DNA of 35,208 nucleotides from the NCBI GenBank assembly GCA_025357995.1, contig JANYLF010000068.1, positions 1-35,208 of the forward strand, read 5' to 3'. Source of the stretch: Acidimicrobiia bacterium (lineage in GTDB: Bacteria; Actinomycetota; Acidimicrobiia; IMCC26256; JAENVU01). The notes under the pieces are model-generated. The model did not search any database, was not told where the DNA came from, and was given only the letters and a program-made list of their open reading frames with translations. Below are positions 12,739-31,981 of the stretch, piece by piece. The first letter of the stretch is position 1. Each line of letters starts with the position of its first letter. Both the position numbers and the translations under genes were made by a program.

Positions 12739-13802
12739 AACACATGCCCCAGGTACCTCACGTGCCCGACCGTCCGCTCGACGCACTGACCTCCATCAAG
12801 GTCAAGCTCGCTACCCTCATCGTGGGCGCGGTGAGCGTGACCGTATTCGTCTTCTGGTTCGGCGTGCGGATTGTCCACGTGTGGCCGAGTGCGGCCGGGA
12901 TCATCGCGGCTGCCGTCGCACTCCTGCTGGTCAGCCGACTCGCGCGCGGGATGACGTCACCGTTGCGCGAGATGGCCGCTGCGGCTCAGGCCATGGCCAA
13001 GGGCGACTACACCCAACACGTGACTGCGACTTCGCACGACGAGGTCGGTCGGCTGGCCACGGCGTTCAACCAGATGGCCGCCGAGCTCGCGGAAACCGAC
13101 CGTGTCCGTCGCGATCTCGTCGCGAACGTGAGCCACGAGTTGCGCACACCGCTGACCGCGCTGCAGGCCACGCTCGAGAATCTGGTCGACGGCGTGGCGA
13201 CGGCCGATCCGCGCACCCTCACAACCATGCTCGGCCAGGTGGAACGACTCGGTCGCCTGGTGACACAACTCCTCGACCTTTCCCGTCTCGAAGCCGGCAC
13301 GGTTCCCCTCGACCGCCATGCATTCGCGGTTGAACCGGTCCTCGCACACGCGGTGCGCGAACAGGAGCTCAACGACGCCGGCATCGCCATCGAGATGCGC
13401 GTCGACGACCACGCGCTCTCGGCCGACGGCGACCCCGAACGTGTCCATCAGGTAGTCGCCAACCTGCTCGAGAACGCAGTGCGCCATTCACCGAACGGTG
13501 GTTCGGTGATCGTCCGCGCCCGTCGCACCGCCGAAAGTGTGGTCATCGAAGTGCTTGACGAAGGGCCGGGAATCGCCGCGGCCGACGCCGAACGCGTCTT
13601 CGAGCGCTTCTATCGCGCCGACACCGCACGCTCGTCGTCCGACGGCGGCGCGGGGCTCGGCCTCGCAATCGCCCGCTGGATCGTCGACCTCCACGGTGGC
13701 GAGATCCACTCGGAACCCCGCGAACCCCACGGCTGTCGCATGGTCGTCACGCTGCCCGGAGCCCACCCGCAACCCCGCCAATCCGAGGAGATCACCCAAT
13801 GA
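12735..13802 (+). CDS. Sensor histidine kinase (two TM helices with a minimal loop, then HAMP, HisKA, HATPase_c)
   Basis: H-box SHELRTPLTAL, N-box NLLENAVRHSP, G1 DEGPGI, G2 GGAGLGLAIA. GTGA overlap with the regulator stop at 12735-12738; alternative ATG at 12744. Confidence 0.85.
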   Translation: MKHMPQVPHVPDRPLDALTSIKVKLATLIVGAVSVTVFVFWFGVRIVHVWPSAAGIIAAAVALLLVSRLARGMTSPLREMAAAAQAMAKGDYTQHVTATSHDEVGRLATAFNQMAAELAETDRVRRDLVANVSHELRTPLTALQATLENLVDGVATADPRTLTTMLGQVERLGRLVTQLLDLSRLEAGTVPLDRHAFAVEPVLAHAVREQELNDAGIAIEMRVDDHALSADGDPERVHQVVANLLENAVRHSPNGGSVIVRARRTAESVVIEVLDEGPGIAAADAERVFERFYRADTARSSSDGGAGLGLAIARWIVDLHGGEIHSEPREPHGCRMVVTLPGAHPQPRQSEEITQ

Positions 13803-14461
13803 GCTTCGCAACCATCGACGAGGCCCTCCGCCGCATCCGCCGCGGCGAAATGGTCCTCGTGGCCGACGACGAAGATCGTGAGAACGAAGGCGATCTCACG
13901 ATGGCCGCGGAGTGGGTCACACCTGAGGCCGTGAACTTCATGCTCCGGTGGGCGCGTGGACTCGTGTGCATGCCGACCGATCCCTCGTATCTCGACCGAC
14001 TCGAGATCCCACCGATGGTCCCGCCCGACGCGGCCGGGAACGACACGCCGTTCAGTATCTCGATCGATCACCGGGACGCCGGGAGCGGTATCGGCGCGGC
14101 GGATCGTGCTCACACCGTGCGGCGGTTCCTGGACCCGAACGCGACCCCGGGAGAGTTTCTGCGCCCCGGTCACGTGTTCCCCTTACGCGCGCGTACGCGC
14201 GGTGTACTCGAACGTCGCGGTCACACCGAGGCCGCGGTCGACCTCGCGCGCCTCGCGGGTCTGGCTCCGGTGGCCGTGATCTGCGAAGTGCTGCACGACG
14301 ACGGCTCACCCGCGCGCATGCCGTTCCTTCAACTCTTCGCCGAGGAACACCGCATCGCGATCATCACCGTCGCGCAGATTGTCGAACACATCGAAGCAAC
14401 CGGCGCGAGTGCCGCCGACGGCCAACTCGCCGGAGCCGGCCGCGCCCCCCTGCTCCTCTGA
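13799..14461 (+). CDS. ribB: 3,4-dihydroxy-2-butanone-4-phosphate synthase, stand-alone (not a RibBA fusion)
   Basis: DDEDRENEGDL, MLRWARGLVCMP, RRGHTEAAVDLARLAGL; 220 aa. ATGA overlap with the kinase stop at 13799-13802. Confidence 0.85.
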   Translation: MSFATIDEALRRIRRGEMVLVADDEDRENEGDLTMAAEWVTPEAVNFMLRWARGLVCMPTDPSYLDRLEIPPMVPPDAAGNDTPFSISIDHRDAGSGIGAADRAHTVRRFLDPNATPGEFLRPGHVFPLRARTRGVLERRGHTEAAVDLARLAGLAPVAVICEVLHDDGSPARMPFLQLFAEEHRIAIITVAQIVEHIEATGASAADGQLAGAGRAPLLL

Positions 14462-14468
14462 CGAGACC

Positions 14469-14723
14469 TCAGGTACCCGGGTCTTCGCCGACTTCTCGAA
14501 GCGCAGCCGCCACGGCGGCGCGTAAGCGTCGGGCGGTCGCGGGCGCGAGGTGCGCCACCAGTCCGTAGCCCGCGCCGCCACGCTCCTCCAGCGTGAGACT
14601 CACCCTCGGCTCCCCGTCATCGGACGCGCCCGGGTCGTCGGTCAGCCCGACCATCCAGGAAATCGCCGGGAATTCTTCGTCGGCGGGGTGGTCGTCGAGG
14701 GCATCGTCGATCGAGCGGCGCAT
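14469..14723 (-). CDS. Hypothetical small acidic protein (84 aa from internal ATG)
   Basis: Hand count over 85 triplets gives GC of about 80/55/79% by position, which fits a coding phase. The minus-frame product looks protein-like. The same-phase plus ORF (14550-14750) is Arg-rich. No recognisable family. Confidence 0.4.
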   Translation of the reverse strand: MRRSIDDALDDHPADEEFPAISWMVGLTDDPGASDDGEPRVSLTLEERGGAGYGLVAHLAPATARRLRAAVAAALREVGEDPGT

Positions 14724-18278: not shown

Positions 18279-18320
18279 GTTCCTACGCTACGCGGTCATT
18301 GCTCGGTACGCTCCCCACCG

Positions 18321-19064
18321 ATGTTGCCCTCCACCCAACACGATTCGCTCGCGATGCGCGTGCGCGCCATCTATCGCGACGCCCACTCCATGTATCGCGC
18401 GCACTTCGGGTTCATCATCGGAAGTGCCGCGCTGGTACTCGCGCCGTTCGCGATTCTCGACGGATTCGGTCTCATCGGTTCCGACACCTCGAGCACGCGG
18501 CCGTGGGTCATCGCGGCCACCATCTTCGTGGCGATCGCGACGACCGGATTGAGCAGCCTGGCCGGACTCTTCTACTCAGGCCTCCTCGACTACACCGCGG
18601 ACGCCTGGAACGAAGGTGGCGCGTCTCCGAGCCACCGCTCGGTGGCGCACAAACTCCCATGGCTCCAGCTCGTCATCGCGAGCGTCATCGCATTCGTCAT
18701 CGAGATCGTGGGGTTGATGACGCTGGTCCTCCCGGGTCTGGTGCTGTACACGCTCTTTGTCCTCACCGGACCAATGCTGGTGCGCGAGCGATTGACCGCC
18801 GTCGCCGCGCTCAAACGCAGCGCGGGTCTGGTCCGACGCAACCCCACGCTCGTGGTACTGGCCGTGCTCCTCCCGTCGATGGTCGAGAGCTCGATCGCCG
18901 ATTTCGCCGGTCTGATCTTCGGTCATCACCTCGCGATCGAACTCGTCGCGGAGGTAGTGGTGACGTTGTTTGCCGCGTCGTTTGTCGGTGTCCTCGAAGT
19001 GATCACCGCCCAACATCTCCAACGCGCTCATCCGCCGGACCGGCCCACGACGAACTCTGCGTGA
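18321..19064 (+). CDS. Hypothetical integral membrane protein (247 aa)
   Basis: In-frame ATG at 18321 after the pdxH divergent gap. At least 5 hydrophobic helices. No confident family assignment. Confidence 0.5.
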   Translation: MLPSTQHDSLAMRVRAIYRDAHSMYRAHFGFIIGSAALVLAPFAILDGFGLIGSDTSSTRPWVIAATIFVAIATTGLSSLAGLFYSGLLDYTADAWNEGGASPSHRSVAHKLPWLQLVIASVIAFVIEIVGLMTLVLPGLVLYTLFVLTGPMLVRERLTAVAALKRSAGLVRRNPTLVVLAVLLPSMVESSIADFAGLIFGHHLAIELVAEVVVTLFAASFVGVLEVITAQHLQRAHPPDRPTTNSA

Positions 19065-20887: not shown

Positions 20888-22126
20888 ATGGCGCAACCAT
20901 CTCCGACTCGGATCGGCCGCTACGACAACGCGTACCGCGTCGCGGTGTGGCACCGTGATCCACCGGCCGGCACCACGTGCACCCCACTCGTCCTCGATAC
21001 CCAGGACCGGGCGGTATGCCACGGCTGGCTCTATGCCCACGGCGGCGAGTCGACGGTCGCCGTGGTCATGCACCCTCGCGCCGACTTCTCCCACCACTAC
21101 GTGGTCCCGGGCTTGCTCGAAGCCGGGATCGCCGTGTTGGCCGTCAACAGTCGGTGGCTGAATAACGACACGACCCTGATCCACGAACAGGTGTTGCTCG
21201 ACGTGGCAGCGGGTGTCGCTGCAGCCCGAGCGCGCTACGAACGCGTCGTGTTGATCGGCAACAGCGGTGGCGCGTCGCTGTTCACGTTCTACCTGCACCA
21301 AGTGCTCGCACCCGACGGTGGCCGCCTGACCCATACTTCCGCCGGAGACGCGTTCGATCTCAACCGGTTCGACCTTCCCGACGCTGATCTCATGGTGTAC
21401 CTCGCGGGTCACGCCGGAGAGGGTCACTACTTGTTGCACGCGATCGATCCTTCGGTCGTCGACGAAGCCGATCCCATCTCGTGCAATCCGGATGTGGACC
21501 TTTACGATCCACGCAACGGATTCGTCGAGCCACCGGACGAGCCGCGGTACACCGCCGAGTTCCTCTCGCGCTACCGCGCCGCCCAACGGGCGCGGGTGGA
21601 ACGCATCGACGCGCGGGCACGCGAACTCGTCGCCGCGAAACGCGCGGCGCGCGGCGCGTGGGCGGGCGGCGATGGCACCACTGCAGACCGGCGGGCCGCA
21701 ATCGCGACGCACTTCATGTACGTGTACCGCACCGACGCCGACCCGCGCGCCGTCGATCGCTCCCTCGATCCTTCCGAACGGGACTACGGCTCGCTCTGGG
21801 GTCGTCGGCCGGACTGGATCAACTACGGCGCGGTCGGGTTCGGTCGCGTGGTCGCGCCCGAGGCGTGGCTCTCCACCTGGTCGGGGCTGTCGTCACAAGC
21901 CGAGATCGCAACCACCGGCGCCCGGATGACCCTCCCCGCATTGCAGGTGATCTACACGGGCGACAACTGCATCTATCCGTCGGACGACGCGCTGATCGCA
22001 TCGTCGCTCGCGACCACCGAGCTGGAACGCGTCACCGTCGCCGGCGACCACTACGGATTTCCGGCCGACCGCGGCCGTGACCCGGCGACGCGAATCGTGG
22101 CGGATTGGATCACGGCGCGCGCGTGA
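20888..22126 (+). CDS. Alpha/beta hydrolase-fold protein with a large lid insertion
   Basis: Nucleophile elbow LIGNSGGAS. Candidate Asp (YTGDN) and His (GDHYG) near the C-terminus. 412 aa. Confidence 0.6.
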   Translation: MAQPSPTRIGRYDNAYRVAVWHRDPPAGTTCTPLVLDTQDRAVCHGWLYAHGGESTVAVVMHPRADFSHHYVVPGLLEAGIAVLAVNSRWLNNDTTLIHEQVLLDVAAGVAAARARYERVVLIGNSGGASLFTFYLHQVLAPDGGRLTHTSAGDAFDLNRFDLPDADLMVYLAGHAGEGHYLLHAIDPSVVDEADPISCNPDVDLYDPRNGFVEPPDEPRYTAEFLSRYRAAQRARVERIDARARELVAAKRAARGAWAGGDGTTADRRAAIATHFMYVYRTDADPRAVDRSLDPSERDYGSLWGRRPDWINYGAVGFGRVVAPEAWLSTWSGLSSQAEIATTGARMTLPALQVIYTGDNCIYPSDDALIASSLATTELERVTVAGDHYGFPADRGRDPATRIVADWITARA

Positions 22127-22820
22127 CCTGCCCTGCTGGCGTGCGGGTCGTGAGCGACGGGAAGAACGCACGGGCGAGGAGCGCCACCCACAGTGCACCG
22201 AGGAGCCACCCGCCAATCACGTCGGTGATCCAGTGCACGCCGAGATACACGCGCGTGAGCCCGACGACGAGCGGCACCAGCGCAGCCAGAGCCCACCCCC
22301 ACCAAGGGATGGCGCGCTTGCGGAGGTGCCACCGCGCGACGAGCAACGCGCCCACGACAACCGTCGTGTTGAACGCGTGGCCCGACGGAAACGCACCATT
22401 GCCGATCACATCCAAATGGAGCGAGACCGGAGGCCGATGACGATCAACCACCGCCTTCGCAATGTCGACGATCAGTTCCGGTCCAACCATCGCGACCACG
22501 AGGAACGCTCCGGTCCAACGGTGGCGACGCAGTGTGAGCAGACCCACCCCGATCCCGCCGATGGCGATGAGCACCCAACCGCGACCGGTGGGTTGCGCAA
22601 CCCGCAAGGCATCCGTCAGGCCGGTCGAACGGCGCGCCACGAACCAATCGGTGACGGCGCGGTCCGGTCCCATCGGCCCCCGCCCGCCGACGAGTCGCAT
22701 GACCCAACCGACACCAACGCTCACGCCCAGCACGATCAGGACCGCGCCGACGACTCGTATCCACACGGCTTGGTGACGCACGCCGGATTCCCCATCGGCC
22801 GGCTGCACCACGTCCCTCAT
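22110..22820 (-). CDS. PAP2 family membrane phosphatase
   Basis: All three PAP2 motifs: K-x6-RP (KAVVDRHRPP), PSGH, and TRVYLGVHWITD (R-x5-H-x3-D). Confidence 0.85.
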   Translation of the reverse strand: MRDVVQPADGESGVRHQAVWIRVVGAVLIVLGVSVGVGWVMRLVGGRGPMGPDRAVTDWFVARRSTGLTDALRVAQPTGRGWVLIAIGGIGVGLLTLRRHRWTGAFLVVAMVGPELIVDIAKAVVDRHRPPVSLHLDVIGNGAFPSGHAFNTTVVVGALLVARWHLRKRAIPWWGWALAALVPLVVGLTRVYLGVHWITDVIGGWLLGALWVALLARAFFPSLTTRTPAGQVTRAP

Positions 22821-22834: not shown

Positions 22835-23728
22835 ATGAAGGTCCGCATCGGCTACGGATTCGGTACTCAGCGCGGCTTCACCGCACCGCGCTACGCGGCG
22901 ATGGTCGACGCGCTCGACGGGCTCGGATTCGATTCGCTGTGGCTCTCGGAACGCATCACCGCCGACGCGCCCGATCCGATCGTCGGACTGGCCGTGGCCG
23001 CCGGTCGTTCGGCGCGGCTCAAGCTCGGCACCAGTGTGCAGGTGCTTCCGGGTCGCAACCCGGCGTTGCTCGCCAAGGAGCTCGCGACCCTCGACGTGCT
23101 GTCCGACGGTCGATTCCTGCCCGCGTTCGGCCTCGGCATCGCGCATCCGGCGGAACAGCAAGCGTTCGGGATCGATCGGAAGGCGCGGGCGGCGTATTTC
23201 GAAGAGGCGCTGCCACTGCTGCGTCGATTTTGGCTCGAGGACGCCGTCGACCACGACGGCGATCGCTTCCACTACGAGGGGCTCACCGTGCGTCCAAAGC
23301 CGGTGCAGCAACCGCCCGACATCTGGCTGGGCGGCCGCGCGCCGGTCGAGCTGCGTCGGGTCGGGCGCCTGGCCGACGGTTGGCTCGCATCGTTCTCGAT
23401 GCCCGCCGAGTGCGCGGAAGGTCGATGCTCGATCGAAGCCACCGCGGCCGAGCACGGCCGGTCGATCGATCCGGAACACTTCGGCGCGATGATCCTCTAC
23501 GCGCCGGACGAACTCCCCGAGCCGGTGCGCGCGCTCATCGCGGGTCGTTCGCCTGAAGTCGATCCTCGTGATCTCGTCCCGAGCAACCTCGACGCATTGG
23601 AACGTCGGATCACCGAGTACGTAGACGTTGGAATCTCCAAGCTTGTGTTGGTCCCACTCCACGACCCCGTCGATTGGGCGACGGAGCTGGAACCGATCGC
23701 CCGACGCGTCCACCCGCTCCAGACCTGA
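22835..23728 (+). CDS. LLM-class (luciferase-like) flavin/F420-dependent oxidoreductase
   Basis: GFDSLWLSERI...LKLGTSVQVLPGRNPALLAKELATLDVLSDGRF; 297 aa. Confidence 0.8.
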   Translation: MKVRIGYGFGTQRGFTAPRYAAMVDALDGLGFDSLWLSERITADAPDPIVGLAVAAGRSARLKLGTSVQVLPGRNPALLAKELATLDVLSDGRFLPAFGLGIAHPAEQQAFGIDRKARAAYFEEALPLLRRFWLEDAVDHDGDRFHYEGLTVRPKPVQQPPDIWLGGRAPVELRRVGRLADGWLASFSMPAECAEGRCSIEATAAEHGRSIDPEHFGAMILYAPDELPEPVRALIAGRSPEVDPRDLVPSNLDALERRITEYVDVGISKLVLVPLHDPVDWATELEPIARRVHPLQT

Positions 23729-23732
23729 CAAC

Positions 23733-24623
23733 TCATGGAGACGCGGGGGTGACGGGCGGATGCCCAATCTGATCCTCGTCGCCGGTGACGAACGGCGAAC
23801 GGGCCAGACGAATCACACCGAGCAGCATCACCACCACCGCCGCAGCAACGATCGCGTGTTGCAGGACTCCGTGCGCCTTCAGGTGCTCCTCGAAGATGTA
23901 GATCCCGAGGAATGACGACAGGATCGGATTGGTGACGGCGAGCGCGGGCAACGAGGCCGCCAAGTGGCCCGCGTTGAAGGCGCTCTGGTTCAGCACAAGC
24001 CCCGTAATCGAGAACACCGCGAGCGCGTAGACCGGCCATCGCATGAAGAGCGTCGCGACGCTGTGGTGCCCGAGGATGTCGACCACCTGTTTCGTGAGGG
24101 CGGCGGTGCACGCGTAGCACGCGCCCGTCGCGACCGCGAGGCCGAGTGCGCGGTTGTGCGGCTGCACCCCGCGGGTGATCAACACCATCAACACCATGAT
24201 CGAGATGCAGAACCCGAAGCCGAAGAACCACTCCCAACCCGTCGCGCTCCCGGACCTCCCGATGGGTTCACCGACCCCGAGGAACACCGCGATTCCGCCG
24301 GCGACCGCCGCGGCCGCGAACCACTCCGAACGGCCCGGGCGTGACGCTCTTCCGATGGCGGACAATGGCAGGGCAAACAACAGGCCGCTCACCAACAACG
24401 TTTGGACGAGGACGATCGAGCCCACCGATAGCGCCAAAGCTTCGAGGAAGTATGCGCCGATGTCGAGGGTGATACCGAACAACCACATCGGATGCTTGAT
24501 GAGTTCGATGATGAGACTCGGTCGGAGTGACATGTGTTCCGGCGCGGCGGCCGCAACCTTGTGCTGGAAGACCGACGCGATCGCGTAACAAAGGCCCGCG
24601 CTGAGCGCGAAGATGACCGCCAT
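23733..24623 (-). CDS. DMT-superfamily (EamA/NIPA-like) membrane transporter
   Basis: 296 aa with about 9-10 TM segments in two similar halves. The start lies 3 nt downstream of the deacetylase stop, consistent with an operon. Confidence 0.6.
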   Translation of the reverse strand: MAVIFALSAGLCYAIASVFQHKVAAAAPEHMSLRPSLIIELIKHPMWLFGITLDIGAYFLEALALSVGSIVLVQTLLVSGLLFALPLSAIGRASRPGRSEWFAAAAVAGGIAVFLGVGEPIGRSGSATGWEWFFGFGFCISIMVLMVLITRGVQPHNRALGLAVATGACYACTAALTKQVVDILGHHSVATLFMRWPVYALAVFSITGLVLNQSAFNAGHLAASLPALAVTNPILSSFLGIYIFEEHLKAHGVLQHAIVAAAVVVMLLGVIRLARSPFVTGDEDQIGHPPVTPASP

Positions 24624-24626
24624 CGG

Positions 24627-25382
24627 TTACGCCGCGACAGGATCCGGGATGAGGATCCCGTGTTCGCCCACCGGCCCCACGCGCAAGCCGCGTCCACGCA
24701 GCTCGTCGGCCAGGATCGGCAGTGCCTCGAGCGCGGAGTACCAACACTCGGGTGCCGACGTGCAGTCCGAATCGTGCAACAGCACCGTCCCGCCGTCGAC
24801 GTAACCGTGCAACACGTCGGCCACGACCGATCTTGGTGTTGCCTCGGCCCGCCAATCGCGGCCCCACGCCGTCCACAACACACTGCGCAGCCCGGCCCGA
24901 CGCGCGCCGCGAACGCCGCCGAGCGACAACGTTCCGTAGGGCGGTCGGAACCACACTGGTTCGACACCCGACGCAGACGCGACCGCGTCGCGCGCACGGC
25001 TGATGTCGTCCGCGACCGCGCGAGGCGACAAGCGGAGCTGCGACCTATGGGTGTCGCCGTGGACGCCGATCTCGTGGCCCGCGGCGGCAACTTCGGCCGC
25101 GAGGCTGGGCGCGCGCCGCGCCATGTCGCCCAACATGAAGAAGGTCGCGTGCACGTCGAGGGCGTCGAGCACCCGAAGAAAGTGCGGCGTCGAGGTGGGA
25201 TCCGGACCATCGTCGAACGTCAACGCGACGTGGCCACGAAGTCCCACACCGGCGAGGCGGGGAGAGATCCGTCGTCCGACGCTCGAGAGCGCGACCAACG
25301 ACGGAGCGACGTGCGCGGCAACCCCGACCGTGCCGACCACACCCAGTCCCACGCCGACGACGACCGCCGGGCGCACGGTCAC
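24627..25382 (-). CDS. Polysaccharide deacetylase (NodB homology domain) with N-terminal TM anchor
   Basis: VALTFDDGPDP, ATFFMLG, GHEIGVHGDTHRS, and LLHD at the end of the domain. GTG at 25382 overlaps the upstream TGA (GTGA). The 456-aa track ORF is over-extended. Confidence 0.85.
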   Translation of the reverse strand: MTVRPAVVVGVGLGVVGTVGVAAHVAPSLVALSSVGRRISPRLAGVGLRGHVALTFDDGPDPTSTPHFLRVLDALDVHATFFMLGDMARRAPSLAAEVAAAGHEIGVHGDTHRSQLRLSPRAVADDISRARDAVASASGVEPVWFRPPYGTLSLGGVRGARRAGLRSVLWTAWGRDWRAEATPRSVVADVLHGYVDGGTVLLHDSDCTSAPECWYSALEALPILADELRGRGLRVGPVGEHGILIPDPVAA

Positions 25383-27154
25383 CGGAGCTCGGAGAGTGGT
25401 GACGACCGGAGGCTCTCGGCGGCCAGCTGGTGTTGGATCTCTGCGAGCGCGATCCGCGTTGCGTCTGGTGTCGCGCCTCGCCCGTCGAGGACGTACACCG
25501 CTCGATCCCGCAAGGACTTCGGGAGGTTCGCCGGGCGAATGAGATAGTCGGGGAGCACGAGCCGCTGACCCCTGCGCCGGGCAAAGATCTGGTCGAACGC
25601 GTCGAACCGGCGGCCCGGGACGAACTCGAGCACCTTGGCACCCGTGACATTCTTCGTAATCGCGTCCGTCGACGTCACGACGTCGGTCTCGGCCCGCAAC
25701 GGTCGGAACGGCCGACCTTGGCCCCAACCGCCGTTGCCGAGATCGACCCGTCGATCCACCAGCGCCTGCATTGCCGAACCGTCGACCGTTTGGACCGTCT
25801 GACCATCGACGATCGCAGTGACGTTCATCTGGTCGAGCATGCGCCGAATCGCCGGCTGCTCCACCTCGGCCTTCGACAAACGCACACCGAGGAACACTTT
25901 GTCGTGGGCCGAGCGCGGTGGTGCGGCCACGCCCACACCAAAGGCCGCGATGCCCTGGGCGCCAAGGGTGAGCATTCCGTAAACCGCGAGCGTGCAAAAG
26001 GTCGCCACCCGCACGCGGTGCGGGAGCTTCGGCATCTGGACCGGGTTCTCGACGCCGTCACGCCCGCGACGCGTGGCCTCACCGAGCACGTCGTCGGTGG
26101 CATCACCCGCGAACAGCGCGTGGGCACGCGCGATCTGCTCTTGGCGCGGCGCACTCGGCCGACTCAACACCGTCAAGGCGTCGGCCAGCTCGGCACCGTC
26201 GCGTGCGTACCGGGTGACTCCGAGCTGCGACATCCCCTCGGCGTTGTCCTTACCGTGACCCGCGATCGGCAAGAACGTGACCACCGGAAGCCCGACCGCA
26301 AACGCCTCATTTGCGGTAAGTCCGCCGGCGTTTTCCACCATGACGTCGCACGCGGCCATGAGTCGCGGCATGTCGTTGGTCCAGCCGAGGATCGAGCCGC
26401 GCCCGCGCGCTTCGAGCTCGACCTTGAGTTTCTCGTCACGCGCGCACACGACGACGGGATGGAAATCTCCGGCCGCGCAGATCGCGTCGAAGGTGCCGGT
26501 GATATCGCCGACGCCCCATGATCCGGCCACGACCAACACCGCACGTTCGCTGTCGGTGAGACCGAACTCGGCACGCGCCTCGCTGCGCCCCGCGCCGACT
26601 GCGGTACGGAACCGATCCGCGACCAAAGGACCAGGAGCGCGAGCGTCTTCGCCGCCGCGGGTCCGCGCGGTGGCGGCCGCGAACTCACTCGTCGCGAGAT
26701 GCACGTCCACGTGCGGATGCACCCACAGCGGATGCACCGCGAAATCGGTGAGGTACGTGATGACGGGAACCTTGAGCCATCGCTTCTTGCGCATGTTCCC
26801 GAGTACGAGCGACGACAGGGGATACGTGGACACCACGACATCCGCGTCCGTCTCGGTGATGGCCCGGCGCAGACGCTTGCCGGCGACGAACGTATCGAGG
26901 CGAACGATGAATCCCCAGGTGGAGGGGAGCTTGTACCAAAGCCGGTACGTGAGCTCGTAGCTCCACGGCGCGACCCGGAGCTGCACCAGGTAGCTCCACT
27001 TGATGAACCACCCAATGCCGAACGGGCAGCAGTGGAGGAAGTCCACGATGCGGACGGTGTGGCCCTGGGCTTCGAGGCGCTTGCGGAGCTCGTGCGCCGC
27101 GCCGTCGTGGCCCGCGCCCATCGACGCCGAAACGATCAGAATCCGCCGAGCCAT
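25379..27154 (-). CDS. GT28 / MGDG-synthase-family glycosyltransferase fused to a TM helix and a ~175-aa C-terminal domain (degenerate NodB-like)
   Basis: RILIVSASMGAGHDGAAHEL, VVVSTYPL, ITYLTDFAVHPLW, VMVENAGGLTANEAFAVGLPVV. TM helix VATFCTLAVYGMLTLGAQGIAAFGVGV at aa ~381-408. 591 aa from the ATG at 27154. Confidence 0.8.
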   Translation of the reverse strand: MARRILIVSASMGAGHDGAAHELRKRLEAQGHTVRIVDFLHCCPFGIGWFIKWSYLVQLRVAPWSYELTYRLWYKLPSTWGFIVRLDTFVAGKRLRRAITETDADVVVSTYPLSSLVLGNMRKKRWLKVPVITYLTDFAVHPLWVHPHVDVHLATSEFAAATARTRGGEDARAPGPLVADRFRTAVGAGRSEARAEFGLTDSERAVLVVAGSWGVGDITGTFDAICAAGDFHPVVVCARDEKLKVELEARGRGSILGWTNDMPRLMAACDVMVENAGGLTANEAFAVGLPVVTFLPIAGHGKDNAEGMSQLGVTRYARDGAELADALTVLSRPSAPRQEQIARAHALFAGDATDDVLGEATRRGRDGVENPVQMPKLPHRVRVATFCTLAVYGMLTLGAQGIAAFGVGVAAPPRSAHDKVFLGVRLSKAEVEQPAIRRMLDQMNVTAIVDGQTVQTVDGSAMQALVDRRVDLGNGGWGQGRPFRPLRAETDVVTSTDAITKNVTGAKVLEFVPGRRFDAFDQIFARRRGQRLVLPDYLIRPANLPKSLRDRAVYVLDGRGATPDATRIALAEIQHQLAAESLRSSPLSELR

Positions 27155-27228
27155 GGAAAGCTGAGCGTACTGCGAGAAGGCTGAGAACGCCTGGTTTTGA
27201 GGGCGAGCGCGAGAGAGGGAGCCCGCCG

Positions 27229-28245
27229 CTACCAGCCGAGGATCGCGCCGGCAATCATCCCCAGGATGAGCAGGCCACCGGCGCGGCGGGTCAGCAGGAA
27301 CGAATGCGGGGCGAACCACAGCGGCCAGACCGGATTCGGCATGGGCGATTCAGCCGGTTTGGGCGACCCGTAAACCTTCCACACCCTGGCCAGCAGCGGG
27401 AGCGACGCGAACACGAGCAGCGTGCCGATCGGGAGTATCCGGGCGACGACCAGACCCGCGACGAGCGCGTAGAACACCACGAACATGCCGCGGGTCACCT
27501 GACGTGCGGGACCGTCACCGAGGATCACCGGCAGCGTGCGCGTGCCCGCGGGTCCGTCCCACGGTGCCTTGTCGATGTGCTTGCCCATCAGGACCGTCGT
27601 GCACAACACCGCGTACGGCAACGACGCAAGGAGAACCGCGCCGGGGATGGTTCCCGTGGCCGCGTAGTACACGCCGCCGACCATGAGCGGACCCCACACC
27701 GCGACGACCGTCGGCTCACCGAGGCCATGCTTCTTCAAGCGAATCGGCGGCGCGGTGTACGCGGCCGACAGCGCGAAGCCGCCGAGCGCGAAGCCGATGA
27801 TCGCGGGACCGCGTGCCACGGTGAGAGAAATCATGATGCCGAGGCACATCACGTTCACGATGAGCGCGTACATCGCGAGCCGGCCACGGGTGACCACACC
27901 GGAGATCACCGGGTGCGGCGAGTAGAGGTTGCGCGGGTAATCCTTGGTGTCGGTACCGACTTCGAGGTCGAACAGGTCGTTCATGATGTTGTTCGCCATA
28001 TGTGCGAGCACGAGGCCGACCGCGGCAACGACGAAGTACACCCAGTTCACGCTCGCATCACGGAAGACCGCGAGCAGACCGCCCAGCCCCGCGGCCACGA
28101 GCGTCATCGGCAGCACGCCCGCGCGCGTGAGCCACAACCACTTGGACACCGGATCCAGCGTGCCCTTCGGCGGGTTGGTGGTGGCCAGGACGTACAGCCA
28201 CTTCTTCGGGAGGCTCTCCCGCTGGCCAACCACGGCGTCAGTCAT
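27229..28245 (-). CDS. UbiA-superfamily prenyltransferase (MenA-like motifs)
   Basis: Asp-rich motif NNIMNDLFDLEVGTD and second motif GKHIDKAPWDGPAGTRTLPVILG. 8-9 TM. 338 aa from the ATG at 28245. Confidence 0.8.
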   Translation of the reverse strand: MTDAVVGQRESLPKKWLYVLATTNPPKGTLDPVSKWLWLTRAGVLPMTLVAAGLGGLLAVFRDASVNWVYFVVAAVGLVLAHMANNIMNDLFDLEVGTDTKDYPRNLYSPHPVISGVVTRGRLAMYALIVNVMCLGIMISLTVARGPAIIGFALGGFALSAAYTAPPIRLKKHGLGEPTVVAVWGPLMVGGVYYAATGTIPGAVLLASLPYAVLCTTVLMGKHIDKAPWDGPAGTRTLPVILGDGPARQVTRGMFVVFYALVAGLVVARILPIGTLLVFASLPLLARVWKVYGSPKPAESPMPNPVWPLWFAPHSFLLTRRAGGLLILGMIAGAILGW

Positions 28246-28287
28246 GCCATCGAGGCTACACACGTCACTTTTGGTCGGCCACCCTGG

Positions 28288-28367
28288 CGCGGAACTGTCG
28301 TACAAGGTGTTCACTTCTTCTGCAACGATCCGGCCGACCGCGAGACAACACGCGGAACGATCGTCAG
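28288..28367. promoter_or_regulatory. Two copies of CGCGGAAC-NN-TCGT spaced 63 bp apart in the divergent UbiA / Rieske-fusion control region
   Basis: 28288-28301 (cgcggaactgtcgt) and 28351-28364 (cgcggaacgatcgt), 12/14 identical. Read directly. Confidence 0.3.
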
Positions 28368-28387
28368 AACGGCGGGCAGACCGCGCC

Positions 28388-28394
28388 GAGGAGG
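28388..28394 (+). promoter_or_regulatory. Shine-Dalgarno GAGGAGG for the Rieske-GltS-like gene
   Basis: GAGGAGG followed by a 6-nt spacer and the ATG at 28401. Confidence 0.6.
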
Positions 28395-28400
28395 CACCCG

Positions 28401-30011
28401 ATGGAAATGGTGAAGATCGCAACCTGGAGTGAGATTCCGGACCGCGAACCGGTGGGCGTCATGCTCGAAGGGATCGACCTCGTCATCGTTCGCCAAGGCG
28501 ACGAGCACTCAGTGCTCTACGGACGCTGTCTTCACCGCGGCGCGCTGCTCGCCGACGGCCACATTCAAGGTGAAGACTTGATCTGCGGCGTGCACGGGTG
28601 GGACTACCGCATCGAGAGCGGTGTGAGTGCGTACAACAACGCCGAGGCGCTCGAGAAGTTCACCAGCGCGGTCGCGGGCGACGACCTGCTCGTCGACCGC
28701 ACCGAGGTATTGCATTTCTCGATGCGCCACCCGCAACCGTTCGATGCCGACGTGTACCAGGGTTACTACCAAGACCCGCACATGGTGCCCGAGGAGCCGT
28801 TCGTCGCGTACATCCACGAACTCGCCGCGAACGGTCTCACCAAGACCGGCCATCATGGTCCTCTCGGCGCAATGGGCGTGCCGCGTGACGACCTCCCGAA
28901 GTGGGATCACATCCAATTCGTCACCGCGCAGTTGGCGCGCCTCCCCAAGCTCGACGAGGAGCCCGTCGGCACCGACGTCTGTATCGGCCCGAACGCCGAC
29001 AAGCCGTTGTGGCTCGACATCCCACTGTTCGTCTCCGACATGAGCTTTGGCGCGTTGTCGCAAGAGGCGAAGACCGCGCTCGCGCGTGGCGCGGAACTCG
29101 CGGGCACCGGCATCTGCTCGGGCGAGGGCGGCATGTTGCCCGAGGAGCAGGCCGAGAACAGTCGGTACTTCTATGAGCTCGCGTCGGCGCGGTTCGGGTG
29201 GAACATCGACGTGCTCAAGAAGGTGCAGGCGTTCCACTTCAAGGGTGGCCAGGGCGCGAAGACGGGCACTGGTGGCCACCTGCCCGGCGACAAGGTCGTG
29301 GGCAGGATCGCGTCGGTCCGCAACCTTCCGGAAGGCACCGCGGCCATCTCCCCCGCACGCTTTCCGGACTGGAGGTCGATCGACGATTTCCGACGCTTCG
29401 CCGACGTCGTGCGTGAGGAGTCCGGCGGGATCCCGATCGGGTTCAAGCTCTCCGCGCAGCACATCGAGGAAGACCTCGACGCCGCGTTGGCCATCGGAGT
29501 CGACTACGTGATCCTCGACGGTCGCGGCGGCGGTACCGGCGCGGCACCCTTGTTGTTCCGCGACAACATCAGCGTGCCGACCATCCCCGCGTTAGCGCGA
29601 GCACGGCGCCACCTCGACCGTCGGAACCGGCGCGACATCACGCTCGTTGCGACCGGTGGGCTCCGTCACGCACCGGACTTCGCAAAGGCACTTGCCTTGG
29701 GTGCCGACGCGGTCGCAGTCGCGAACTCCGCGATCCAAGCGATCGGCTGTCTCGGGATGCGGGCATGCAACACGAACAACTGTCCCGTCGGCATCGCCAC
29801 CCAGAAGCCCCACTTGCGCGCCCGGCTGCCGGTGGACGAAGCCGCCGAACGATTGAATCGATTCCTGCGCGCGACCGTCGAGCTGATGCAGATCCTTGCC
29901 CGCGCGTGCGGGCACGACCACGTCCGCGAGTTCTCCGCCGACGATCTCACCACGTTCGACCGCGACATGGCGCACCTCACCGGCATTGCCTACGGCGGAG
30001 TCGCGCTCTGA
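28401..30011 (+). CDS. Rieske [2Fe-2S] domain fused to a glutamate-synthase-type FMN/[3Fe-4S] domain (no amidotransferase domain)
   Basis: CLH-x16-CGVH (aa 43-65). FVSDMSFGALS, KGGQGAKTGTGGHLPG, ILDGRGGGTGAAP. C-x5-C-x4-CP (CLGMRACNTNNCPVGIATQ, aa 450-462). 536 aa. Confidence 0.85.
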   Translation: MEMVKIATWSEIPDREPVGVMLEGIDLVIVRQGDEHSVLYGRCLHRGALLADGHIQGEDLICGVHGWDYRIESGVSAYNNAEALEKFTSAVAGDDLLVDRTEVLHFSMRHPQPFDADVYQGYYQDPHMVPEEPFVAYIHELAANGLTKTGHHGPLGAMGVPRDDLPKWDHIQFVTAQLARLPKLDEEPVGTDVCIGPNADKPLWLDIPLFVSDMSFGALSQEAKTALARGAELAGTGICSGEGGMLPEEQAENSRYFYELASARFGWNIDVLKKVQAFHFKGGQGAKTGTGGHLPGDKVVGRIASVRNLPEGTAAISPARFPDWRSIDDFRRFADVVREESGGIPIGFKLSAQHIEEDLDAALAIGVDYVILDGRGGGTGAAPLLFRDNISVPTIPALARARRHLDRRNRRDITLVATGGLRHAPDFAKALALGADAVAVANSAIQAIGCLGMRACNTNNCPVGIATQKPHLRARLPVDEAAERLNRFLRATVELMQILARACGHDHVREFSADDLTTFDRDMAHLTGIAYGGVAL

Positions 30012-31981
30012 TGGTCGCAACCCAGATGACACAGGACCCCAACGGATCCGTCTGGCACAAGGTGGCAGAGCTCGACGATGTCCCCGACGGGCGCGTACGG
30101 ACGGTACTGGCCGGGAAGCATTCGATCGCGCTCACGCGCGTCGGCGACCAGTACGGCGCGCTCGACAACCACTGTCCGCACCAAGGCGGTCCCCTCGGTG
30201 AAGGGTCTATCGAGAAGGGCCTGTTGCGGTGTCCGTGGCACGGGTACGACTACGACCCGCTCACCGGAACGCCGCCGTCGGGCTTCTCCGATGCACCGAA
30301 GTGCTTCCCGCTCGAGGTGCGCGCCGACGGCATCTACGTCGCGGTTGCTGTCGATGCGCCCCACGAACGCACCGTCTCGGACGTGATGGTCGAGACCATG
30401 GTCGAGTGGGGCGTCACCCATGTGTTCGGCATGGTCGGCCATTCCAACCTCGGATTCGCCGACGCAATGCGGCGCCAAGAGGTGGCCGGCAATCTCACGT
30501 TCGTCGGTATCCGCCACGAAGGTGCGGCCGCGTTTGCGGCGTCGGCGTACGGCAAGCTCACCGGCCGTCCCGCGGCGTGTTTCGCGATCGCCGGTCCGGG
30601 CTCCACCAACCTGCTCACCGGTTTGTACGACGCCAAGGTCGACCGCGCGCCAGTGCTCGCGATCTCCGGCCAAGTGCCGTCGAAGGTGCTGGGCCGCGGC
30701 GCCTTCCAAGACGTCGATCTCAACGCCGCGTTCGCCGCGGTGGCCAGCTACTCCAAGACCGTGCTCCCAAACTCGGACCACGCAGAGCTCATGACGCTGG
30801 CGTTGAAGCACGCGACGGTGCAGCGCGACGTCGCCCATCTCGTCTTCCCCGACGAAGTCCAGGAGAAGGTAGTGGGCGACGCGCCGCTGGCGTCGTCACC
30901 CGTCGGCCGAATCGGCGATGCGCGCATCGCGCCGCCTGACGCCGCGTTGGACGACGCGTTGGCGTTGATCGAAGGTGCCCGGCGGCCGGTCATCGTCGTG
31001 GGTCACGGCGTCCGCTTCGAGATGGACGCGGTGATGGAGCTGGCGGAGACGCTGCACGCGCCCGTGCTCACCACGTTCAAGGCGAAGGGCCAGGTCTCGG
31101 ACCACCATCCGCTCGGCGCCGGAGTACTCGGGCGAAGCGGCACGCCCGTCGCCAGCTGGCTCATGAACGAGTCGGACCTCTTGATCGTGCTGGGCGCGTC
31201 GTTCTCGAACCACACGGGGATCGCGTCGTACAAGCCGATCGTGCAGGTTGACTTCGACCCGATGGCGCTGGGTCGGTTCCATCCCGTGACGGTTCCCGTC
31301 CAGGGTCACGCGGGCGTGACCGCGCGGCTGATGGTCGAGCGGCTCGCGCCCGGTGGCGACCGGGCGGACCAACGTCCCGACGTGGCCGCGCGTTGGGCGA
31401 TCTGGCGCGCCGAGAAGGCGCGGCGCGTGCTCGACGATCGCGGCGAGGGCGTCTCTTCCGCCGCGGTGTTCGACGCGATGAACCGTCACGTACCGAATGA
31501 CGCGGTCATCACCGTCGACGTCGGGAACCAGGCGTACTCATTCGGCCGCTACTTCGAATGTCACGAACAGTCGATCCTGATGTCGGGGTACCTCGGCTCC
31601 ATCGGCTTCGGTTATCCCGCGGCCATGGGGGCATGGGCCGCCGTCGGCGACACCCGCAAGATCGTCGCGGTCACCGGCGACGGCGGCTTCGGTCAGTACC
31701 TCGCGGAGATCACGACCGCGGTGAAATACCACATGCCGATCACGCACGTGCTGCTCGATAACGCCTCCCTGGGCAAGATCACCAAAGAACAACGCGCCGC
31801 CGAATACGAGGTGTGGCAAACGTCGTTACACAATCCCGACTTCGCGGCATACGCGGAGCTGTGCGGTGCGATGGGGATCCGAGTCGACGCGGCTTCCGAA
31901 CTCGACGATGCATTGGACCGCGCCATCACGCACGACGGCCCGGCGCTCGTCGCCGTCCAAGCCGATGCCGAGCTCGTGTAG
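30011..31981 (+). CDS. Rieske [2Fe-2S] domain fused to a pyruvate-oxidase/acetolactate-synthase-type thiamine-diphosphate enzyme
   Basis: CPH-x16-CPWH (aa 55-77). Pyr domain GIRHEGAAAFAASAYGKLTG and AGPGSTNLLTGLYDA. ThDP/Mg motif GDGGFGQY...LLDN. The ATG at 30011 shares one base with the upstream TGA. 656 aa. Confidence 0.85.
   Translation: MVATQMTQDPNGSVWHKVAELDDVPDGRVRTVLAGKHSIALTRVGDQYGALDNHCPHQGGPLGEGSIEKGLLRCPWHGYDYDPLTGTPPSGFSDAPKCFPLEVRADGIYVAVAVDAPHERTVSDVMVETMVEWGVTHVFGMVGHSNLGFADAMRRQEVAGNLTFVGIRHEGAAAFAASAYGKLTGRPAACFAIAGPGSTNLLTGLYDAKVDRAPVLAISGQVPSKVLGRGAFQDVDLNAAFAAVASYSKTVLPNSDHAELMTLALKHATVQRDVAHLVFPDEVQEKVVGDAPLASSPVGRIGDARIAPPDAALDDALALIEGARRPVIVVGHGVRFEMDAVMELAETLHAPVLTTFKAKGQVSDHHPLGAGVLGRSGTPVASWLMNESDLLIVLGASFSNHTGIASYKPIVQVDFDPMALGRFHPVTVPVQGHAGVTARLMVERLAPGGDRADQRPDVAARWAIWRAEKARRVLDDRGEGVSSAAVFDAMNRHVPNDAVITVDVGNQAYSFGRYFECHEQSILMSGYLGSIGFGYPAAMGAWAAVGDTRKIVAVTGDGGFGQYLAEITTAVKYHMPITHVLLDNASLGKITKEQRAAEYEVWQTSLHNPDFAAYAELCGAMGIRVDAASELDDALDRAITHDGPALVAVQADAELV

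Follow-up and report, generated by a model that had tools for sequence, protein, structure and literature searches.

A glycosyltransferase, deacetylase and transporter module in uncultured Acidimicrobiia as a candidate pathway to a cationic amino-sugar lipid

What do four co-directional membrane-protein genes of an Acidimicrobiia bacterium make, and do all four belong to the same pathway? The genes occupy positions 23,733 to 28,245 on the minus strand of a 35,208-nt stretch of DNA (contig JANYLF010000068.1 of assembly GCA_025357995.1), which we refer to as the window. They encode a UbiA-family prenyltransferase, a glycosyltransferase (GT) fusion protein, a NodB-type de-N-acetylase and a transporter of the DMT superfamily. 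An earlier sequence-only reading proposed that the four proteins build, de-N-acetylate and translocate a lipid-linked amino sugar. Our comparison suggests that the genes at 23733-27154 form a three-gene module of GT, NodB and DMT, most likely making a cationic hexosamine-bearing membrane lipid (probability about 0.6), and that this trio is very probably a unit separate from UbiA.

The layout of the genes gives the first indication of which of them act together. In the direction of transcription, the UbiA gene (27229-28245, ATG at 28245; PF01040, E 1.7e-23) is followed by the genes for the GT fusion protein (25379-27154, 591 aa; PF06925 MGDG_synth), the CE4/NodB de-N-acetylase (24627-25382, 251 aa; PF01522) and the DMT-superfamily membrane protein (23733-24623, 296 aa; NCBIfam NF038012). 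Features are on the minus strand unless a plus sign is given. In the raw sequence, the GTG start of NodB (25382-25380) overlaps the TGA stop of the GT gene (25381-25379) within a GTGA (25382-25379), and the TAA of NodB is separated by 3 nt from the ATG of the DMT gene at 24623. A spacer of 74 nt lies between the TAG of UbiA (27231-27229) and the ATG of the GT gene at 27154. The GTGA overlap indicates that NodB is translationally coupled to GT. Because the third-position GC of the four genes is 0.80-0.88 vs 0.64-0.75 in overlapping alternative open reading frames, the four annotated frames are favoured; the GC content of the window per 1-kb step is 61-71%, mostly 65-70%. Hydropathy gives about 10 hydrophobic spans in DMT, 8-9 in UbiA, one in the GT fusion and one N-terminal span in NodB (about residues 5-33). 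The four genes, their exact coordinates and all three junctions are thus as the sequence-only reading had described them, and the hydropathy bears out its view of every product as a membrane-embedded or membrane-anchored protein. The window has no Rfam or tRNA match.

The N-terminal part of the fusion protein (residues 1-366, 26057-27154) is, judged by family and by predicted fold, an interfacial lipid glycosyltransferase of GT-B fold and of the MGDG-synthase/UgtP family within the GT28 type. It matches PF06925 with an E of 5e-19 (69.4 bits, cutoff 25), and in NCBIfam it scores far better with diglucosyl-diacylglycerol synthase (7e-37) than with murG (9e-6). A sequence search of the PDB returned UgtP (9wde, 9e-25) and MGD1 (6.6e-17), with no other families matched. 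The AlphaFold2 (AF2) model of the full protein, built with 37 homologues, has a mean predicted local distance difference test score (pLDDT) of 89 and divides it into the GT-B domain, a membrane helix at residues 379-404 (25943-26020) and an alpha/beta C-terminal domain at residues 419-585 (25400-25900). In a Foldseek search, the Arabidopsis MGD1 structure 4x1t comes first (E 4e-16, TMt 0.76) and MurG next (1.8e-10), and BshA is also among the GT-B fold matches. Residues 40-100 are rich in aromatic side chains (5 W, 4 F, 4 Y), which fits an interfacial enzyme acting on lipids. The helix at 379-404 is the sole hydrophobic span of the protein by hydropathy. Its N-side flank (KLPHRVR) is more positive than its C-side flank, and Y392, T396, G398, G406 and G408 are invariant in and around it.

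The domain behind the membrane helix is, from its predicted fold and its alignment, a pseudo-deacetylase, that is, a CE4/NodB fold that has lost all catalytic residues. Foldseek with the full-length model returned GT-B matches only, and the C-terminal domain was modelled separately. Modelled alone, it reaches a pLDDT of 95.5, and its top 34 Foldseek matches are all CE4 structures, the first being the pseudoenzyme BA3943 (7bkf/6hpa, TMq 0.79-0.80). PF01522 is matched by 4 of 24 members of the fused domain family (best E 1.7e-6). In an hhalign alignment with the NodB of the window, the metal-binding His108 and His112 are replaced by G and Q, Arg146 of motif 3 by V and His203 of motif 5 by L; aligned by eye, the Asp-Asp of motif 1 has become Arg-Leu. 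The losses in motifs 1 and 2 recur in 37 divergent family members, suggesting that the dead state of the domain is ancestral. Other positions are invariant, in the motifs GVRL, NGGWG, RxxRAxxD, FxPxRRxDAFDQ and YxxDGR, and these residues lie at the C-terminal strand ends, where CE4 enzymes have their groove. The domain may therefore still have a groove, conserved and rich in Arg, that binds a ligand. A profile of the domain finds 198 representative clusters (E <= 1e-3) in 1.84e9 proteins, so that the family is small and well defined (about 200 representative clusters), and it has no family model of its own. Of the matches whose length allows them to be complete, most have about 556-690 aa and carry the domain C-terminally, and PF06925 is present in all seven such proteins whose locus was examined, which makes them GT fusions as well.

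The pseudo-CE4 domain is predicted to face outward, because the protein has a single helix with a more positive N-side flank and the GT domain needs a cytoplasmic nucleotide sugar. The sequence-only reading had called the protein a GT28 fusion; the GT part stands, and the fusion partner can now be specified as a CE4-fold pseudo-deacetylase. Its nearest known counterparts, BA3943 and BA0330/BA0331 of Bacillus anthracis, likewise have a NodB fold in which catalytic or metal residues have been lost. Those proteins stand alone, as secreted proteins or lipoproteins, and act on the cell wall, whereas the domain here is fused to a cytoplasmic GT and paired with the gene of an active CE4 enzyme, and the sequence identity is only 14%.

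The separate NodB protein, in turn, looks catalytically competent at the level of its motifs. PF01522 is the sole Pfam family it matches (E 4.7e-32, 111 bits), and its PDB matches are CE4 enzymes with E values down to 7e-30, the closest including peptidoglycan N-acetylglucosamine (GlcNAc) and N-acetylmuramic acid (MurNAc) deacetylases. The five CE4 motifs (TFDD57/58G, H108xxxH112, R146PPYG, D176W and LLH203D) are kept in 33 NodB orthologues. Near the N-terminus, the Acidimicrobiia orthologues have about 18 hydrophobic residues rich in Gly and Ala, and after these a near-invariant H[ST]APSL[IV]ALS. The third protein of the module scores 163 bits against the NCBIfam model NF038012, 'DMT family transporter' (cutoff 50). 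It has no match in Pfam, EamA included, or in the PDB, so that its assignment comes from NCBIfam alone; Pfam EamA matches only DMT paralogues, and these weakly. DMT homologues (27-85% identity) adjoin GT-NodB in nearly all Acidimicrobiia loci, either downstream or divergently upstream, including the loci whose GT fusion is 37-41% identical to that of the window. The DMT protein is the candidate flippase or exporter of the module.

Further evidence that the three genes belong together is their conservation. A genome scan with the GT fusion, in which uncultured Acidimicrobiia metagenome-assembled genomes (MAGs) are the nearest relatives of the window, gave 35 loci that were mapped by tblastn. 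In about 17 close loci (GT at least 72% identical), the order is UbiA-GT-NodB-DMT-LLM(-) as in the window, where LLM is an LLM oxidoreductase gene. A further set of about 12 loci is more distant (GT 47-63% identical, plus L025 and L027 at 73-74% and the fragmented L028); here UbiA lies 2-4 kb upstream of GT with variable genes between, among them BrkB, an acyl-CoA ligase and a DMT paralogue on the opposite strand. At a GT identity of 52%, the distance to UbiA grows to 2.9-6.3 kb, and of the DMT genes only the paralogue upstream is left. No locus was found in which GT and NodB are apart; in Acidimicrobiia this holds for about 30 loci at 33-96% identity. The recurrence of the order in the close loci and of the GT-NodB pair throughout means that the gene arrangement is not due to chance. 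An apparent absence of NodB in L016, L020 and L028 was rejected as the result of frameshifts in long-read assemblies, as fragmented NodB matches are present there.

Farther from the window, the module changes its surroundings. In Catenulispora there are only a fusion-less GT and NodB, beside a HisKA_3/LuxR two-component system, and the two genes are adjacent in the five loci with enough downstream sequence. In five fusion homologues that are more distant again (L116-L120, 37-41% identity where measured), one of which traces to an Acidimicrobiaceae MAG, NodB and a DMT homologue are adjacent to the GT in all. Four of these five loci, the most distant ones (L117-L120), have, 1-3 kb downstream, a gene of PF03706, LPG_synthase_TM, the MprF-type flippase family; by tblastn, neither the window nor any of the loci L001-L116 has a PF03706 homologue. 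An OmpR-type two-component system stands next to the module in L116 and L119. Because the trio recurs across close and distant loci, the conserved core is GT-pseudoCE4, CE4 and DMT, found together in Acidimicrobiia down to 37% identity. The neighbourhood is thus syntenic for GT-NodB, mostly with DMT, and the linkage of UbiA that had been proposed along with it is limited to one subclade. Two further features of these loci can be mentioned. In L037 (GT 52% identical), genes for a GT2/Glyco_transf_21 protein and a CrtO-like acyltransferase (PF18927, a family for acylation of carotenoid glycosides) lie about 4 kb downstream of GT-NodB at 13354-14639; the region may thus serve another function as well, in glycolipids or carotenoid glycosides. 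In L117-L119, an AI-2E/PerM transporter gene (PF01594) on the opposite strand is kept between NodB and the PF03706 gene.

Characterized systems with a similar gene content suggest what such a module could make. HexSDF of Clostridioides difficile, described in 2023, combines a GT of the MGDG-synthase family with a polysaccharide deacetylase and a flippase resembling MprF; it is needed for aminohexosyl-hexosyl-diradylglycerol, whose N-acetyl intermediate builds up without HexD, and the HexRK two-component system adjoins the genes (PMC10128005). GpgSDF of Pseudomonas aeruginosa, described in 2025, makes GlcNAc-phosphatidylglycerol (GlcNAc-PG) and then the glucosamine form, GlcN-PG, and includes a putative flippase; GpgS is a GT4 enzyme, GpgD belongs to COG3233, not to PF01522, and GpgF belongs to UPF0104 (PMC12713373). 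The module resembles HexSDF in having an MGDG-synthase-family GT followed by a CE4 deacetylase, together with a membrane translocator. Some likenesses are found in relatives only: a two-component system beside the module in Catenulispora, L116 and L119, and in L117-L120 the PF03706 MprF-type gene, of the same family as HexF and GpgF. The module differs from HexSDF in that its GT is fused through a membrane helix to a dead CE4 domain predicted to face outward, its translocator candidate is a 10-helix DMT protein with no MprF-type gene in the window, and its host is an uncultured member of the Acidimicrobiia (Actinomycetota), not a Firmicute. With GpgSDF it would share three functions, the addition of GlcNAc to a membrane lipid, its de-N-acetylation and a presumed flipping step, with a cationic amino-sugar lipid as the predicted product; the GT, however, scores only 15.8 bits against NF053787, the model of the GT4 GlcNAc-PG synthase (cutoff 480). 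A Catenulispora NodB orthologue gives a sub-threshold match to PF10096/DUF2334 (20 bits, cutoff 26), a family that presumably corresponds to COG3233, the GpgD type.

The sequence-only reading had drawn its analogies from the Arn pathway and from poly-N-acetylglucosamine (PNAG) synthesis, and both fail on the class of the GT, which is GT-B and GT28-like instead of GT2. The Arn pathway does share NodB-fold deacylation of a lipid-linked amino sugar and flipping by DMT-superfamily proteins. ArnC, however, is a GT2 enzyme of GT-A fold acting on undecaprenyl phosphate, ArnE and ArnF are small 4-helix proteins in place of a single DMT protein of about 10 helices and 296 aa, and no other Arn genes are present at the locus. 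In the PNAG systems (PgaC/PgaB, IcaA/IcaB), the synthase is a processive GT2 enzyme with a membrane channel, while the Pfam hits of the window contain no GT2 match and the AF2 model has a GT-B fold with one membrane helix. HexSDF and GpgSDF, which the earlier reading had not cited, are much closer to the module than Arn or PNAG. The core logic of the earlier proposal, in which a GT, a NodB de-N-acetylase and a transporter lead to an amino-sugar lipid, is supported by strong synteny and by these two experimentally characterized analogues. Literature searches turned up no account of such a module in Acidimicrobiia or other actinobacteria. The logic of synthase, deacetylase and flippase is known; the fusion of the GT to a predicted extracellular pseudo-CE4 domain, the DMT partner and the host class are new.

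On the amino-sugar lipid reading, the GT-B domain would work at the inner leaflet, taking an N-acetylhexosamine from a UDP-sugar donor and attaching it to a glycerolipid, which may be diacylglycerol, a glycolipid or a phospholipid. Such a transfer is suggested by the obligate pairing of the GT with an intact CE4 enzyme and by the examples of HexS and GpgS. NodB would then de-N-acetylate the lipid head group to give a free amine, and DMT, in some lineages along with the MprF-type protein, would bring this lipid, or a precursor of it, to the outer leaflet. The pseudo-CE4 ectodomain may bind the sugar head group or the active deacetylase outside, and such binding might couple synthesis inside to processing or display outside. 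We can extend this, more tentatively, to a single trans-membrane machine formed by the GT-helix-pseudoCE4 protein and the active CE4 enzyme, in which the ectodomain would dock the deacetylase or sense the outer-leaflet head group and thereby gate glycosylation at the inner leaflet.

Several observations weigh against the amino-sugar lipid reading. DMT/EamA proteins with 10 helices have a better-known role in the export of small metabolites than in the flipping of lipids. Locus L049 keeps UbiA-DMT-LLM with GT and NodB lost, so DMT can exist alone, and L117-L120 carry both DMT and the MprF-type gene, so DMT is not simply a substitute flippase. In the 33 NodB orthologues the charges flanking the anchor, about +1 on the N-side and about +1 to +3 on the C-side, leave its orientation ambiguous, and the Catenulispora orthologues lack a clear membrane helix. 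GT28 also includes MurG, which has a polyprenyl-linked acceptor, so that the acceptor class of the GT is not fixed by its family. In addition, the comparison with HexS, HexD and GpgD is one of family assignments and gene logic.

The membership of MurG in GT28 opens a route to the cell wall, in which a MurG-like GT would add GlcNAc to a polyprenyl-diphosphate-linked wall precursor, the CE4 enzyme would de-N-acetylate a wall polymer or peptidoglycan outside, the pseudo-CE4 domain would bind the polymer and DMT would flip a lipid-linked intermediate. The Foldseek match to MurG, the peptidoglycan deacetylases among the closest solved relatives of NodB and the cell-wall action of the known CE4 pseudoenzymes BA3943 and BA0330/0331 all agree with it. 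We nevertheless consider it unlikely, since the GT is far nearer to UgtP and MGDG synthase than to MurG in NCBIfam and matches only UgtP and MGD1 in the PDB, no polymerase, ligase or other wall-polymer genes are present at the locus, and relatives link the module to an MprF-type lipid flippase, as in HexSDF. The exporter-like character of the DMT protein leads to another possibility, that the GT and the deacetylase make a soluble glucosamine-containing metabolite by the logic of mycothiol or bacillithiol and that DMT/EamA exports it. In both MshA/MshB and BshA/BshB, GlcNAc transfer comes before deacetylation, the order expected here, and BshA is among the fold matches of the GT. However, MshB and BshB belong to the LmbE family and not to CE4, the GT belongs to MGDG_synth, a family that acts on lipids, and carries an aromatic interfacial segment, it is anchored in the membrane with an ectodomain, NodB has a hydrophobic anchor, and the flippase linked in relatives is again of a lipid type. 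A soluble product is thus improbable.

The four-gene pathway of the sequence-only reading, in which UbiA would supply or modify a prenyl or polyprenyl lipid for Arn-like glycosylation, de-N-acetylation and flipping and a nearby PAP2 phosphatase would recycle the phosphate, fares poorly on synteny. UbiA is co-directional with the GT and immediately upstream of it, and in all window-clade Acidimicrobiia loci with enough flank it lies 0.1-6.3 kb upstream of the GT. UbiA itself is more conserved than the GT, with 68-96% identity across 88 distinct loci. Counted from the UbiA side, among 61 loci with at least 8 kb of downstream flank, GT/NodB are found within 8 kb downstream in 26 and are absent in the other 35, which include every locus where UbiA is at most 76% identical to that of the window. 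A UbiA...LLM(-) backbone persists without the module in seven loci (L067, L072, L073, L077, L101, L104 and L105), of which L073 is the complete genome IMCC26256. Conversely, L116-L120 and Catenulispora have the module without UbiA, and in related loci 2-6 kb of variable genes separate UbiA from the GT. The commonest partner of UbiA is a flavin reductase gene (PF01613) on the same strand, at most 1.5 kb upstream in 47 of 83 loci. UbiA also looks like an aromatic (MenA-type) prenyltransferase and not a sugar-phosphate transferase. All NCBIfam equivalogs score below cutoff (TIGR00751 54.7/102, NF004749 81/277, best PRK05951 109/239), and its first Asp-rich motif, of the type NDxxDxxxGxD, is one that we take to resemble MenA. 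In other lineages, UbiA is followed by a long-chain fatty-acid CoA ligase gene (PRK06187, above cutoff) and a NUDIX gene; a role of UbiA as the MenA of a men cluster was rejected, because this ligase is of the PRK06187 type and not MenE. The four-gene pathway is therefore highly improbable.

The spacer between UbiA and the GT supports the separation. An alignment of 17 UbiA-GT spacers varies nearly everywhere except at TAC[GC][CA]T, which all of them share and which stands at a constant distance of 9-10 nt from the ATG of the GT. In the window it is TACGCT (27164-27169), 9 nt before the ATG and with no Shine-Dalgarno sequence. Elsewhere in the window, GTACGCTC occurs once, at 18306-18313 (+), 8 nt before an ATG at 18322. 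This second GTACGCTC box matches the TACGCT-N9-ATG layout in front of the GT gene and suggests a recurring leaderless-type promoter layout in the organism. A TANNNT -10 element and leaderless transcripts are typical of actinobacteria, and the TACGCT box fits them. A sigma-70 and terminator scan of 23500-28500 gave background level only, and it was the comparison of spacers between loci that revealed the box. The TACGCT box is a candidate promoter from which GT-NodB-DMT could be transcribed with a short leader or none, and its conservation suggests that the module is probably transcribed from its own promoter in this spacer. Taken together, the module-free loci, the inserted genes, the pairing with flavin reductase and the -10-like box argue that UbiA is a backbone gene forming a unit of its own next to the module, and that one subclade has gained, or kept, the module between UbiA and LLM.

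The genes around the module are variable as well. The PAP2 gene (22110-22820) lies between the LLM oxidoreductase gene and a gene for a 412-aa protein, whose end it overlaps by 17 nt. Only the window and the two relatives with 96% identity (L125 and L126) carry PAP2; elsewhere the LLM and 412-aa genes are directly adjacent, so that PAP2 appears to be a recent insertion and a role as lipid-phosphate recycler is rejected on synteny. The 412-aa protein (20888-22126, +) has no Pfam or NCBIfam match and, at 64-84% identity, lies beside LLM in many Acidimicrobiia loci. On the other side of the module, between the UbiA start (28245) and the first Rieske start (28401), the window has 58 bp at about 28260-28317 where the 96%-identical L125 has 628 bp carrying a flavin reductase gene (PF01613). 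The window genome thus seems to have lost the most conserved neighbour of UbiA. Two adjacent genes divergent from UbiA (28401-30011, +, and about 30011-31981, +) each start with a Rieske [2Fe-2S] domain, fused in one to a glutamate-synthase-type FMN domain (PF01645) and in the other to a pyruvate-oxidase/acetolactate-synthase-type thiamine pyrophosphate enzyme; the pair is conserved in the close clade only (87-95% identity).

Cationic amino-sugar lipids alter the charge of the membrane surface, and in C. difficile they increase resistance to daptomycin and bacitracin. Genes for making them have been known only since 2023 in one Firmicute and since 2025 in one Pseudomonas. The module would extend the principle of amino-sugar lipids to the Acidimicrobiia, a class of soil and freshwater Actinomycetota that is abundant and for the most part uncultured. 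Since the simpler Catenulispora version, a GT and NodB beside a two-component system, is present in cultured strains, the prediction is directly testable. If the fusion protein and the deacetylase do form a single machine, this would be an undescribed coupling of the synthesis, flipping and maturation of a surface-charge lipid, and it could provide a genetic basis for uncharacterised glucosamine-containing lipids in Actinomycetota.

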